30,892 bases of DNA from Atopobiaceae bacterium (GTDB lineage Bacteria > Actinomycetota > Coriobacteriia > Coriobacteriales > Atopobiaceae). The translations under genes were made by a program, and so were the position numbers. Of the stretch, positions 14,896 through 18,776 are shown in pieces. Where the stretch lies: the NCBI GenBank assembly GCA_017510875.1, contig JAFWLX010000169.1, forward strand, positions 1 through 30,892, read 5' to 3'. Below the pieces are notes generated by a model, which was given only the letters and a program-made list of their open reading frames with translations, was not told where the DNA came from and made no database searches. Each line of letters opens with the position of its first letter. The stretch's first letter is position 1.

Positions 14896-16233
14896 CTACG
14901 CCCGGTAGCGCTCCACGACCTTGAGCACAATATCGTCCGCCTGGCGACACAGCTCGTCGGTGGGTGCCTCGGCCAGGATGCGCACCAGCTGCTCGGTGCC
15001 GCTCGCTCGCACGAAGCAGCGCCCGTTGCCCGCAAGGAACTTGTTTGCCTCCTTCTCGGCAGCCTTCACCTCGGGGTCGGCCATCGCGGCATCGCGATCG
15101 GTCACCGGCACGTTGATCAGCAGCTGCGGGTAGAGCTTGACCGGACGCACCAGCGTGGAGAGGCTCTCCTTCTCGGAGCGTACCGCCTCCATGATACGCA
15201 GGCTGGTCATGATGCCGTCACCGGTGTTTTCGATGTCGCCAAAGATGATGTGGCCGCTCTGCTCGCCGCCAAGACTGTAGCCGTTCTCGCGCATGCAGGC
15301 ATAGACGTACTTGTCGCCTACGCTGGTGGTCTCGTACTTGATGCCAATCTCCTCAAGCGCCTTGAAGAAGCCAAAGTTGCTCATAACGGTGGGCACCACG
15401 GTGGACTTGGCCAAACCGCCGTGCTTGTTGAGGTAGCGGCCGCATACGTACAGGATGAGGTCGCCGTCGACCACATGGCCCTTGTCGTCCACCGCAAGGC
15501 AGCGGTCGGCGTCACCGTCATAGGCAAAGCCCACGTCAAGGTTGTTGCGCAGGACGAAGGACTGCATCTGGTCGATGTGGGTGGAACCGCAGTTGACGTT
15601 GATGTTGAAGCCGTTGGGCGTGTTGTTGTAGACGTAGACGTCCGCACCCAGCGCGTCGAACACCGGCTTGGCAACGCTCGAGGCAGCGCCGTTTGCGCAG
15701 TCGAGGCCGACCTTCACCCCCTGCAGGCTGAATTTGGCACTGGCGATGAGGTGGGCGATGTAGCGATTGCGGCCCTGCATGAAGTCCACGGTGCAGCCAA
15801 TCGCGTCGCCCGTGGCCAGGGGCACATCAATCTCGCCGTCGATGTAGCGCTCGATCTCCTTGAGGACGTCCTCGTCCATCTTCTCGCCCTGGCCGTTGAC
15901 GAGCTTGATGCCGTTGTCGTAATAGGGGTTGTGGCTTGCCGTAATCATGATGCCGCAGTCAAAGGCGCCATCAGCCGTCACGTAGCTCACTCCTGGGGTG
16001 GGGATAACATGGAGCATGTAGGCGTCGGCGCCACTGGCAACCAAGCCGCTTACCAGCGCAGACTCAAACATGTAGCTCGAGCGGCGGGTGTCCTTGCCCA
16101 ACACGATACGCGCCTTGCGCTCCTGGCGAAGGCCGTAGTACCAACCCACGAATCGACCGATCTTGAAGGCGTGCTCAACGTTAAGGCCCTCGTTTGCCTG
16201 TCCACGAAAGCCGTCGGTTCCGAAATACTTCAT
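14896..16233 (-). CDS. glmM: Phosphoglucosamine mutase
   Basis: YFGTDGFRG, GKDTRRSS, phosphoserine motif ITASHNP, DGDADR, GGEQSGH and RASGTE. Confidence 0.96.
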   Translation of the reverse strand: MKYFGTDGFRGQANEGLNVEHAFKIGRFVGWYYGLRQERKARIVLGKDTRRSSYMFESALVSGLVASGADAYMLHVIPTPGVSYVTADGAFDCGIMITASHNPYYDNGIKLVNGQGEKMDEDVLKEIERYIDGEIDVPLATGDAIGCTVDFMQGRNRYIAHLIASAKFSLQGVKVGLDCANGAASSVAKPVFDALGADVYVYNNTPNGFNINVNCGSTHIDQMQSFVLRNNLDVGFAYDGDADRCLAVDDKGHVVDGDLILYVCGRYLNKHGGLAKSTVVPTVMSNFGFFKALEEIGIKYETTSVGDKYVYACMRENGYSLGGEQSGHIIFGDIENTGDGIMTSLRIMEAVRSEKESLSTLVRPVKLYPQLLINVPVTDRDAAMADPEVKAAEKEANKFLAGNGRCFVRASGTEQLVRILAEAPTDELCRQADDIVLKVVERYRA

Positions 16234-16397
16234 ATGATGCTCCTTGGTTTTATTTGCACGCTTACGTGTATCTGAACGATTTTAGCAGGATGATCCGTTT
16301 TGCCAAATGCCCACACGCATACGCCAAGAATTGCCCTCATCAAGACAAACGAATGGCGCATCGTCACGTATCGCCATGAAAACGGTAGGGCACTTTG

Positions 16398-16498
16398 CTA
16401 TTCGTCGCAAGTTTGCGACGAATAGACCTCCTGTGCACGAGTACCGCTATGGCAGCTCCTCATGAGAGGCCTATCTGTCGCAAACTTGCGACGAATAA
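16398..16498. repeat. REP-like palindrome doublet, downstream flank of the nuclease-like gene
   Basis: Copy 1 (16398-16425) is CTATTCGTCGCAA-GT-TTGCGACGAATAG with perfect 13-bp arms. Copy 2 (16471-16498) is CTATCTGTCGCAA-AC-TTGCGACGAATAA, inverted relative to copy 1. Spacer 45 nt. Confidence 0.9.
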
Positions 16499-16499
16499 G

Positions 16500-17507
16500 C
16501 TACACGACACTCTTTTTCTGTCGAGTATGCCTCTTGCGCTCATCCTGCCTGGGAGTAACCTTCTTGCCAAGAATGTCCAACAGACGTTGAACCTCATTGA
16601 TGCTGGGCCACACTTCCTCCCGAACGTGCTTGCGGGTCTTTCTCGCCACCCACCGAGCGATATAGTCCATTTGAACGGCGCTGCTCAGCTGGCCGTTAGT
16701 CACATAGAGAAGCTCATATCCCTCTGTGCAAAGGGCATAATGCCTTGAGCAGTCATCCTCAATCTGCTTTTCATGGTCCTTGCCAAGGTATTCAAGACCG
16801 AAAAAGCGCTCCGGCCAACACAAGTCAATCCTACATTCTTTACGCGCATAGAATTTCTTGGCATATTCATCCAATGGGACGCTGTAGTTCATCTGAGGAA
16901 GCGCAAGACCAAACCCGTAATACGACGGAGGCAACGACAGCGCAAGCTGCAAGTTAATCTCTTGAGGTGACGCCGCTCCCGCACAAGTCCAACGTAACGC
17001 TTCTCGTAACTGCCCGACTCCCCTAGCACCAGACGCGCCCTTGACGAAGCGATATAGGTCGTCCTCTTTGATTAGGGGCAATCTGTCCTCAAGAACATCT
17101 TGGCCATTCTTCCCCATGGTCGGAGATTTCGTTGCGAGGTAGCGTCCCAACATCATGCAGAGATTAATCATGTGAAGCTCGGATGCCTGCTGCATGAGGC
17201 AGAACGCAGGGGACGACACATACAGCCCCATTGTGTTAGGAGCACGAAGTAGCGCCCCCTCGGGCAGTCGCCCTGTCCACCTGTGGCACACGACCATATC
17301 GTTTTCTCGCGGAGCTCCCCCGTCTCCAACAAGAACCTCAATACCATCGCTAAACACATCGGCCAAGTAGGACGGTATCCAGACGCCTTCAAAATCCGCC
17401 CTGAACTGAGTAACGCAACTTGATGAGACGGGCTCCATCTCAATGCCCTTGTGCGCAAACAGCTCAAGCGCTTTGTCGGCCGATGCATTACATAAACAGA
17501 TGCTCAT
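16500..17507 (-). CDS. AbiEi-like/DUF559-type putative endonuclease (PD-(D/E)xK-like), 335 aa
   Basis: LYVSSPAFCL and ASPQEINL motifs; C-terminal RIDLCWPERFFGLEYLGKDH...DCSRHYALCTEGYELLYVT resembles Vsr/DUF559 domains. AAAGGGGG RBS before ATG at 17507. Family call is by motif recognition only. Confidence 0.7.
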   Translation of the reverse strand: MSICLCNASADKALELFAHKGIEMEPVSSSCVTQFRADFEGVWIPSYLADVFSDGIEVLVGDGGAPRENDMVVCHRWTGRLPEGALLRAPNTMGLYVSSPAFCLMQQASELHMINLCMMLGRYLATKSPTMGKNGQDVLEDRLPLIKEDDLYRFVKGASGARGVGQLREALRWTCAGAASPQEINLQLALSLPPSYYGFGLALPQMNYSVPLDEYAKKFYARKECRIDLCWPERFFGLEYLGKDHEKQIEDDCSRHYALCTEGYELLYVTNGQLSSAVQMDYIARWVARKTRKHVREEVWPSINEVQRLLDILGKKVTPRQDERKRHTRQKKSVV

Positions 17508-17613
17508 GATGCCCCCTTTCGCTCGGGAACACCTATCATCCATGAGTGAGCACAAAAGTGCCTGAGAATTCCAATCGCTTCATTTTTCATGCAGCGACCT
17601 TAAAAGTAGTTAC

Positions 17614-17631
17614 GTGCGACATTCGTCGCAC
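17614..17631. repeat. Mini-hairpin carrying the REP core, upstream of the nuclease-like gene
   Basis: GTGCGAC-ATTC-GTCGCAC contains ATTCGTCGCA, identical to the repeat arm. Confidence 0.55.
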
Positions 17632-17697
17632 CGGGTCGTTTTCTTCTCGAAGCCATAGGCATGGATAGCTTGTTGTTCAAAAATCGAAGCCTCGTGC

Positions 17698-17804
17698 CTA
17701 TTCGTCGCAAGTTTGTGACAAATAAGGCTCTCGCGAAGCGATGTCGCCATCGGCCCCATCATGAGAGGCTTATTCGTCGTAAACTTGCGACGAATAAGCC
17801 TCTC
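17698..17804. repeat. REP-like palindrome doublet, upstream flank of the nuclease-like gene
   Basis: Copy 3 (17698-17725) is CTATTCGTCGCAA-GT-TTGTGACAAATAA. Copy 4 (17763-17804) is GAGAGGCTTATTCGTCGTAA-AC-TTGCGACGAATAAGCCTCTC, a 42-bp palindrome with one mismatch. Same polarity as the left doublet, starting exactly 1300 bp away. Confidence 0.9.
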
Positions 17805-17881
17805 GGTAAAAAAGCACGCCATTTTGTCTCGAGTGCCGGGAATCAAAGCGACCATGAGCAAGTACTGCACGGGCGAGCACG

Positions 17882-17917
17882 AAAAACGCCCCGCCGGACA
17901 AGCCAGCAGGGCGTTTG
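17882..17917 (-). terminator. Intrinsic terminator of rplM-rpsI
   Basis: On the minus strand: AAACGCCCTGCTGGCTTGTCCGGCGGGGCGTTTTTC, a stem followed by a U-tract, 20 nt after the rpsI stop. Confidence 0.8.
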
Positions 17918-17936
17918 AGAGCATATGGGACAAACG

Positions 17937-18332
17937 TTAGCGCTTGGAGAACTGCGGACGCTTGCGGGCCTTCTTCAGACCGTACTTCTTGCGCTCGACG
18001 GCGCGGGAGTCGCGGGTGAGGTAACCGGCCTTCTTGAGATCGGTACGGTAGTCGCCAGCCTCGAGGAGGGCACGGGCAATGCCCAGACGCAGAGCGCCAG
18101 CCTGACCGTTGATGCCGCCGCCCTTGCAGTTGGCGAGCACGTCAAAGCGGGCGTCGGTGTCGGTAGCGCGCAGCGGCGCGGTGGCGTTGTCAACAAGCTG
18201 CTGACGGCCAAAGTAATCGGCAGCGTCACGGCCGTTGACGACGACCTTGCCGGTGCCGGGGACGAGACGGACGCGAGCAACGGCCTCCTTGCGACGGCCG
18301 GTACCCATGTAGACTGCGGTGTTGTCAGCCAT
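17937..18332 (-). CDS. rpsI: 30S ribosomal protein S9
   Basis: [22 protein letters not shown] and C-terminal [19 protein letters not shown]. Confidence 0.99.
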
Positions 18333-18335
18333 CGG

Positions 18336-18776
18336 TTACGCCTCCATTTCAATCTTGACGGGGTTCTGGGCCGCATGCGGATGCTCGGGGCCAGCGTAGA
18401 CCTTGAGCTTCATGCCCTGCTTGCGACCAAGGGTGTTGTGGGGAAGCATGCCCTTGACGGCGTGCTCGACAACCCACTCGGGCTTTTTGGCCATGGCATC
18501 CTTGAAGGACTCGGTCTTGAGTCCGCCCAGGTAGCCAGAGTGACGCCAGTAGAACTTGGCGTCGGCCTTGTTGCCGGTAAGCACAACCTTGTCGGCGTTG
18601 ACGATGACCACAAAGTCGCCGGTGTCGGTGTGCGGGGTGTACTGGGGCTTGTTCTTGCCGCGCAGAATCATGGCTGCCTTGGTGGCAAGGCGACCAAGCG
18701 TGACGCCATCAGCGTCGATGAGCACCCACTTGCGCTCGACCTCGCCGGGCTTGGCGTAATGAGTCGACTTCTTCAC
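18336..18776 (-). CDS. rplM: 50S ribosomal protein L13
   Basis: [33 protein letters not shown] and [24 protein letters not shown] then GTG at 18776. Confidence 0.99.

Follow-up and report, generated by a model that had tools for sequence, protein, structure and literature searches.

Can a nuclease gene form a partnership with the palindromic repeats that enclose it, in the way known from repetitive extragenic palindromic (REP) sequences and their transposases? This question arises from a single-gene cassette in a 30,892-nt stretch of DNA of an Atopobiaceae bacterium (assembly GCA_017510875.1, contig JAFWLX010000169.1, positions 1 to 30,892 of the forward strand), which as a whole is called the window here. 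The gene (16500..17507, minus strand) is the sole open reading frame (ORF) between two pairs of palindromes, called doublets below. It encodes a protein of 335 aa, P0001, and its ATG at 17507 is preceded by AAAGGGGG. On balance, the cassette probably represents a nuclease-plus-repeat partnership of a large protein family in Coriobacteriales, which would be a functional analogue of the REPIN doublets and their REP-associated tyrosine transposases (RAYTs) with an unrelated enzyme. The observations that carry this reading are the anatomy of the cassette, the linkage between gene and repeats throughout the family, the dispersed doublets without a gene, the insertion at a site which is empty in related species, and purifying selection.

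At the sequence level, the half-site TATTCGTCGCAA is found six times in the window with at most one mismatch, compared to a mean of 0.08 in shuffled sequences, 0/100 of which reached six. Four palindromes of 28 bp at 16398-16425, 16471-16498, 17698-17725 and 17770-17797 have start-to-start distances of 73, 1227 and 72, and thus form two doublets of ~105 nt with exactly 1300 bp between their starts. The centres are GT and then AC in each of the two doublets, and TCATGAGAGGC is the end of the spacer in both. The downstream doublet (16396..16500) consists of palindrome 1, a 45-nt spacer and palindrome 2, and abuts the stop codon of the gene (16500-16502, minus strand), since palindrome 2 ends at 16498, one base short of it. 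In the upstream doublet (17696..17804), palindrome 3 is followed by a spacer and by palindrome 4, the latter with 20-nt arms at 17763-17804. As a single strand, each doublet folds into one long hairpin of ~100 nt (z -7.0 to -9.6; -8.4 / -9.6 for the downstream doublet), and 0/200 shuffles were as stable. Because each doublet is almost identical to its own reverse complement, the direct orientation of the two can be read only from the centres of the palindromes and from the end of the spacer.

This anatomy had been described in an initial annotation, which was made from the letters of the window and listed four 28-bp palindromes in two doublets of inverted copies, 72-73 bp apart and with a shared spacer end, as ~100-bp units that lie 1300 bp apart and enclose one gene, copy 2 being one base from the stop codon. 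This description was confirmed. The GC content given for the gene at that time (43-48%) was correctly placed below that of the surroundings, but the figures were too low: in 400-nt windows we measured 0.49-0.55 in the cassette (~52% overall) versus 0.59-0.66 (~62%) in the flanks. Position 17780 is a T in the window and a C in the contigs of three other runs; with the C, palindrome 4 is a perfect match to the consensus half-site.

The arrangement is not confined to P0001. The window belongs to a metagenome-assembled genome (G000; 77% complete, 345 contigs) with exactly four genes of the family, the three paralogues being 26-34% identical to P0001. Each of the three is framed on both sides by an inverted pair that has its own sequence and spacing: type A (unit TTCCTAGAATCGAC..., spacing 49), type B (unit AAGTGCGTAACTTTTG, spacing 95) and type C (unit AAAGTGCGTAATCAT, spacing 83-94). 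Thus, 3/3 paralogues in this genome have cognate palindromes of their own, as the initial annotation had proposed to check. Types B and C have a common core and belong to proteins that are 54% identical (L003 and L004), the cassette of L003 being bounded by terminal inverted repeats of 190 nt. Visibly related units are found in the close protein pair P0004/P0005 (59%) as well.

For the family as a whole, we searched within 400 nt for spaced inverted pairs with an arm of at least 16 nt, at least 85% pairing and a loop of 20-130 nt. Such a pair is present at 23/45 non-redundant family loci versus 1.1% of random 400-nt windows of the genome described above, and this corresponds to a ~25-fold enrichment of the loci over the chance expectation of ~2% for a pair in either flank. 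The concern that homologues might generally lack flanking palindromes is thereby removed. Relatives which are 44-47% identical to P0001 usually have a two-palindrome doublet downstream only, and its sequence is different in each of them.

Doublets also occur at places without a family gene. In the genome of the window, doublets of types A, B and C were detected at 3-6 further places, in gaps between long ORFs; their units are conserved, their spacing is fixed and their interiors are more variable. Of a type named after the genome G016, there are 3 standalone doublets in G016, at least 6 in G014 and 2 in G002, which are the species with the corresponding gene allele, and none in G015, G005 and G012, all of which are without that gene. 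One copy of this type is present in G016 and G014 and missing from the orthologous site in G002, the difference being a 209-nt indel with no clean duplication. In the complete genome G223, the unit that flanks a family gene occurs in ~13 doublets and as six single units, with 0 hits in a reversed-pattern control. Of the 13 doublets in G131, 10 have a length of exactly 140 nt; the 30-nt ends are near-identical and the interiors diverged. No such doublet was found in 12 related genomes, the set of genomes being without a close relative of G131. G082 resembles the window in having the two flanking doublets only.

Two further observations concern the G016-type. At its doublets (L088:2500-2700; standalone L093-L095, L097 and L101-L103), ATGCAT(AA) is found on either side, ~20-25 nt beyond the end and with identical orientation, and this motif may belong to the element or be a target that it prefers. 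In G014, which has the most standalone doublets of this type, an in-frame TAG at codon 302 of L089 (G014:C16) truncates the C-terminal tail.

How did the cassette come to its present place? Read on the minus strand, rplM is followed by rpsI, the cassette and glmM. The upstream neighbour rpsI encodes ribosomal protein S9 (17937..18332, minus strand; Pfam PF00380, E 1.3e-45), and the downstream neighbour is a glmM-type phosphoglucosamine mutase gene (14896..16233, minus strand; Pfam PGM_PMM domains I-IV). The cassette sits between a terminator-like hairpin of rpsI (17887..17900) and a promoter-like site of glmM (TTGGCA-16-TAAAAT, 16279..16306), both on the minus strand and outside the cassette. 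The rpsI-glmM gap is empty in at least 9/18 species of the genus. An empty gap of 109-171 nt was found in G002, G004, G006, G008, G010, G011, G014 and G016, and the gap measures 145-285 nt in G019, G022, G023 and G024, which represent four further genera of the family. When the window is compared with the empty sites of its congeners, homology reaches at most 16290 and restarts at 17867-17890. Since the gaps of the congeners are short, the GC content drops to ~0.52 and the terminator of rpsI and the promoter of glmM lie on either side of it, the cassette (~1.4 kb, a single gene) is an insertion into a variable, harmless gap. Fixation of the gene at this locus, which had been considered beforehand, does not apply, because in addition to the empty sites, relatives with 44-47% identity are located elsewhere in five congeners.

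The nearest homologues of P0001, which are found on short metagenome contigs, have a promoter-proximal block in common with the window, and their end repeats are different. When the upstream regions in the window, L080, L081 and L083 (58-70%-identical homologues) are compared, this block spans 17577..17631 (minus strand) and may have a promoter role; one half-site-like word, CATTCGTCGCA, is located at its distal edge (17620-17630). P0005, which is 58% identical to P0001, comes from another organism, where its gene follows directly on rpsI and the terminator, i.e. at the same site as in the window, and has no upstream doublet. Just 3' of its stop codon, there is a sequence which agrees with the outer arm of ~140-nt doublets that form a family of six copies in the genome of the window (C122:4236-4373, C199:102-235, C33:5483-5624, C37:31-166, C55:7694-7787 and C80:1596-1737), one copy being exact over ~32 nt. 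Within the assembly (77% complete), no cognate gene for these six orphan doublets was detected. Together with the sister gene at the same rpsI site, these orphans of the sister type point to a cassette replacement. From these sequences we infer that cassettes are exchanged at fixed safe sites, and that the window may hold an unspread variant beside the orphan doublets of an earlier type. The copy in the window looks young or freshly swapped in.

Next to the repeats, the enzyme has to be considered. P0001 gave no match in Pfam and NCBIfam at E<=1. It consists of two domains, an uncharacterised one (residues 1-178) and a Vsr/DUF559-type PD-(D/E)xK nuclease domain (~180-300). P0001 aligns over its full length with L003 and L004, the two most distant paralogues in the genome, which match DUF559 (PF04480; 24.8/21.4 and 27/23.1 bits, cut-off 20.6) and also MTES_1575 (PF18741). 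Among the 26 C-terminal domains that were tested, 10/26 match MTES_1575 and 6/26 match DUF559. In the family alignment, E184, E240, D253 and R256 are invariant, while D229 and H246 are conserved to at least 90%. The AlphaFold2 model of P0001 has a predicted local distance difference test score (pLDDT) of 91 and a predicted template modelling score (pTM) of 0.89, and the order of its secondary structure elements fits the alpha-beta-beta-beta-alpha-beta core of Vsr-like nucleases. Foldseek revealed a local match to the catalytic domain of I-Bth0305I (3r3p_B; template modelling (TM) score 0.54 by target, probability 0.66), the profile match to this enzyme being weak (E 0.17). Whole-chain and N-terminal fold searches of the PDB gave no significant neighbour beyond this local match of the nuclease domain. 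We consider the C-terminal domain to be confidently modelled as a Vsr/DUF559-type nuclease with predicted activity.

The model of the N-terminal domain (178 aa) has a pLDDT of 93. This domain has no neighbour in the PDB, and no Pfam match at E<=1 was obtained for it among 40 members, AbiEi models included. Language-model neighbours with AbiEi_1/AbiEi_4 and DUF559 score 0.83-0.89, and one predicted-structure neighbour has a TM score of 0.63; the label AbiEi-like for P0001 is a lead, not a finding. Probably, the N-terminal domain is the DNA-recognition part. The initial annotation had called P0001 an AbiEi-like/DUF559 PD-(D/E)xK protein. The nuclease part of this name holds, given the fold and the conserved acidic and histidine residues, but the AbiEi part is without support in Pfam or the PDB. 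The prospect that no nuclease fold would be predicted can be dropped, since a Vsr/DUF559-type fold was modelled for the C-terminal domain.

Two groups of known proteins invite comparison. The EDxHD (Vsr-like) homing endonuclease family was first described in PMC2677866, and one of its members, I-Bth0305I, is a multidomain homodimer with a ~60-bp footprint, the best target of which is a 14-bp pseudopalindrome centred on the cut site (PMC3239194). Among solved structures, I-Bth0305I is the best structural and profile match; like P0001, it carries a C-terminal Vsr-type catalytic domain in a multidomain protein, and its pseudopalindromic target fits the palindromic candidate targets described here. 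In contrast to such homing endonuclease genes, however, the gene in the window is free-standing between rpsI and glmM, outside any intron, intein or split gene, and is flanked by repeats, gene-less copies of which exist for other members of the family; the N-terminal domain is unrelated by sequence. The second group comprises DUF559 (PF04480)/MTES_1575 (PF18741) proteins of Actinomycetota with AbiEi-type N-termini. They belong to the same nuclease superfamily and to a similar two-domain length class, but differ in that P0001 is without a Pfam/NCBIfam match and its N-terminal domain without a match to AbiEi (40 members). Unlike AbiEi antitoxin systems, the cassette consists of one gene, with no adjacent gene for an AbiEii-type nucleotidyltransferase toxin. 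In the literature searched, we found no published function for the AbiEi-type DUF559/MTES_1575 proteins of Actinomycetota.

The family comprises 1934 clusters (50% identity) at E<=1e-30, nearly all of ~320 aa and with full-length matches. Members are present in 93/200 sampled Coriobacteriia genomes, mostly in three Coriobacteriales families (19/20, 21/25 and 50/50 genomes), the copy number per genome ranging from 1 to 10 or more. Viral contigs contained no relative, and the only record among plasmids is a chromosomal-looking one from Collinsella, annotated as hypothetical. At a second site, locus B, three congeners share an orthologous cassette with ~87% nucleotide identity, a fourth has a divergent cassette with the same flanks, and a fifth has an empty gap of 141 nt. 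The ratio of nonsynonymous to synonymous substitution rates (dN/dS) among the three orthologues is 0.15-0.17, and the orthologues at locus B are under purifying selection.

How might a nuclease of this kind maintain repeats? In the partnership that we propose, each family gene would be bracketed by doublets of ~100-140 nt, which consist of two inverted units, often palindromes, with a fixed spacing and a variable interior. By analogy with I-Bth0305I, a protein dimer would bind the cognate palindrome and cut at or near it, and a pair of palindromes at a distance of 72-73 bp could be occupied at once. Doublets and whole cassettes would then be duplicated, homogenised or replaced through repair by the host or through copying of the hairpin. 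Binding, cutting and a causal role in the spread of the repeats are thus putative. Among characterised systems, REPINs come closest in layout. They are defined as extragenic elements of ~100 bp in which two REPs of opposite orientation, both containing a short palindrome, are separated by a variable spacer (Bertels & Rainey, bioRxiv 10.1101/2021.07.10.451892). In the window and its relatives, the doublets are likewise extragenic and ~100 nt long; their two units are inverted and conserved and contain a short palindrome each, and the spacer varies. As in REPIN/RAYT systems, the enzyme gene lies inside its cognate repeats, gene-less copies occur elsewhere in the genome (at the level of the family), there is one repeat type per gene, and in at least one clade the gene is kept at a fixed locus under purifying selection.

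The two systems differ in several respects. Instead of an HUH-Y1 transposase, the enzyme here is a hydrolytic nuclease of the Vsr/DUF559 type, and its N-terminal domain is uncharacterised. While RAYT genes are single-copy, there are four divergent paralogues in the genome of the window and 1 to 10 or more elsewhere. The repeat populations amount to 0-13 copies, 0 outside the cassette for the type of the window, compared to typically hundreds of REPINs, and the distribution within the genus is patchy, cassettes having been gained, lost and replaced.

A bolder proposal, which we put forward as a possibility and not as the expected outcome, is that Coriobacteriales harbour a second, independently evolved REPIN-type replicator, in which a Vsr/DUF559 nuclease propagates its own doublets and specificity is switched by cassette swap, the window being caught mid-switch. 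In the literature searched, such a repeat partnership was not described for DUF559-type proteins. It was reported that DUF559 proteins are enriched among predicted inversion targets (PMC9881135), which fits genes flanked by inverted repeats.

This proposal is of interest for several reasons. To our knowledge, REP and REPIN repeats have so far been explained via HUH-type RAYT enzymes only, and they are known mainly from Proteobacteria. Here, REPIN-like anatomy and the layout with the gene inside the repeats recur around an unrelated, unannotated nuclease family, which is nearly universal in three gut families of Coriobacteriales (Atopobiaceae, Collinsella-type genomes). If the enzyme indeed services the repeats, this would provide a function for ~2000 clusters of 'hypothetical' proteins, it would mean that repeat-enzyme partnerships evolved more than once, and it would offer a set of natural nucleases with long, fast-diversifying palindromic targets.

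Several results weigh against a partnership of this kind. The palindrome of the window itself has no copy elsewhere in the 77%-complete assembly or in metagenome contigs of the Joint Genome Institute (JGI). Counting of standalone doublets, a check proposed in the initial annotation, gave 3-13 copies for the sister and paralogue types and 0 for the window's own type. At many family loci, a doublet is present on one side only or not at all at the thresholds used. A Mantel-like comparison of protein identity and repeat similarity (1024 locus pairs) gave a weak correlation, with rho 0.11 versus 0.08 for control flanks; given this weak formal test, we rely on qualitative examples only for the correspondence between protein and repeat. 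Moreover, the co-occurrence counts come from related genomes and hence are not independent. Hairpin repeat families of 45 and 12 copies in the genome of the window have no family gene nearby, so that hairpin repeats can exist here without the enzyme. Since a hydrolytic nuclease cannot rejoin DNA, host repair or replication is required for the copying of doublets, and no target-site duplication was found at the 13 doublets of G131. At rpsI-glmM and at locus B, the intergenic DNA of congeners that are 80-87% alike does not align and gives no exact junctions, and the empty sites of other species have diverged too far to yield a target for cleavage. Over 15600-18500, the contigs of four public runs (at least three studies) contain the identical cassette at the same site and no joint that skips it; runs in which the words are shared in part represent low-depth fragments of the same occupied form. 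No excision, circle or empty allele is present in the contigs of the four runs, which are uninformative on absence because contigs drop rare variants.

Alternatively, the cassette could be an autonomous element of the insertion sequence (IS) kind, the gene and end doublets of which transpose together, while the gene-less doublets are deletion derivatives resembling miniature inverted-repeat transposable elements (MITEs). Such elements likewise exist as short non-coding copies, in which the inverted ends are conserved and the interiors diverged, and as a longer form which has the same ends and contains the gene. In line with this, matching repeats bound the cassette, the same site is without it in congeners, the cassette of L003 has 190-nt terminal inverted repeats, and the doublets of G131 resemble 140-nt MITEs with near-identical 30-nt terminal inverted repeats. 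However, neither a known transposase fold nor a Pfam family nor a transposase of a known class was found, strand transfer is impossible for a hydrolytic nuclease alone, and the missing target-site duplications around the 13 copies in G131 speak against transposition, too. Multiplied identical gene-bearing copies were not observed: in no genome did we see a pair of near-identical genes, and the genes in the genome of the window are divergent, each with its own repeat. Furthermore, orthologues keep one locus in three species under purifying selection, and most relatives closest to P0001 have a doublet downstream only. Altogether, we regard an IS-like element as unlikely.

Purifying selection and vertical descent at locus B, as well as the presence of the family in nearly all genomes of three Coriobacteriales families, would also be compatible with a host or domesticated DNA-binding nuclease that acts in repair, regulation or chromosome structure, with nothing being mobile now. 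The palindromes would then be operators or targets, or terminators or mRNA stabilisers, and indeed the doublet abutting the stop codon is terminator-like and a half-site-like word is found at the conserved promoter block. What renders this explanation improbable is, first, the patchy distribution within the genus, with empty and replaced sites, and the low GC content of the cassette. Second, a host function does not account for repeats which differ between paralogues, for unit sequences which turn over fast, or for a doublet which is present in one sister species and absent from another. Third, the 13 doublets of G131, with near-identical ends and diverged interiors, point to recent copying or homogenisation.

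It could also be argued that the link between gene and repeats is due to chance or is indirect, the doublets being independent small mobile repeats which are moved by another enzyme and land in the same safe intergenic gaps. The weak covariation statistic mentioned above and the abundant hairpin repeat families without a family gene beside them would be in agreement with this. We consider such a coincidence quite improbable, since in one genome each of the four family genes has on either side a repeat type that occurs at none of the other family genes, the loci are enriched ~25-fold over expectation, the G016-type doublet is confined to the three genomes which carry that gene allele, and the units are related in the close protein pairs L003/L004 and P0004/P0005.

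Finally, a defence nuclease, restriction-like or directed against phages, that uses the palindromes as self-regulatory sites is very unlikely, because, despite the likeness of the nuclease domain to the restriction-type MTES_1575 and Vsr families and a patchy, hot-spot-like distribution, PADLOC matched no defence model to any of the four proteins, the cassette has no methylase or partner gene and is neighboured by rpsI and glmM, no relative is on viral contigs and one is on a chromosomal-looking so-called plasmid, and the dispersed gene-less doublets are left unexplained. A reading as an integron cassette with attC sites was set aside, since the cargo is always the same gene family, the cassette has no integrase and gene-less doublets are dispersed.

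Other inserts in the rpsI-glmM gap were considered as family members and rejected: they contain unrelated ORFs without a significant Pfam match and have a GC content of 0.62-0.64. An ORF of 641-683 aa is located in this gap in four congeners and one of 586 aa in G013 (loci L017-L021; G003, G015, G017, G005 and G013).

Regarding other repeats in the genome of the window, ~45 hairpin repeats of 85-110 nt form a cluster with the sub-types GCGTGGATTGGGGGACCGTCCC... and GGGACAGTAGGGGGCAGCCCCTTTCTGTTCC (for example C158:13173-13280, C28:1178-1288, C87:12065-12152 and C309:3505-3592). No family gene lies alongside the members of this cluster, and no further DUF559 match was found in this genome. In addition, there are 12 long inverted repeats with arms of up to 74 nt, loops of 70-140 nt and GGCGACCCTCGGGAC in common (for example C131:14668-14913, C207:1396-1660 and C249:4126-4403).

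The six Logan contigs that carry P0003-P0005 (L080-L085) are conspicuous by their ends. L080 ends in an Illumina adapter, and the other five (L081-L085) end 15-36 nt past the stop codon, where the inverted repeat should begin. Probably, these ends are breaks introduced by the assembler at inverted repeats, and collections of short contigs systematically hide such repeats.

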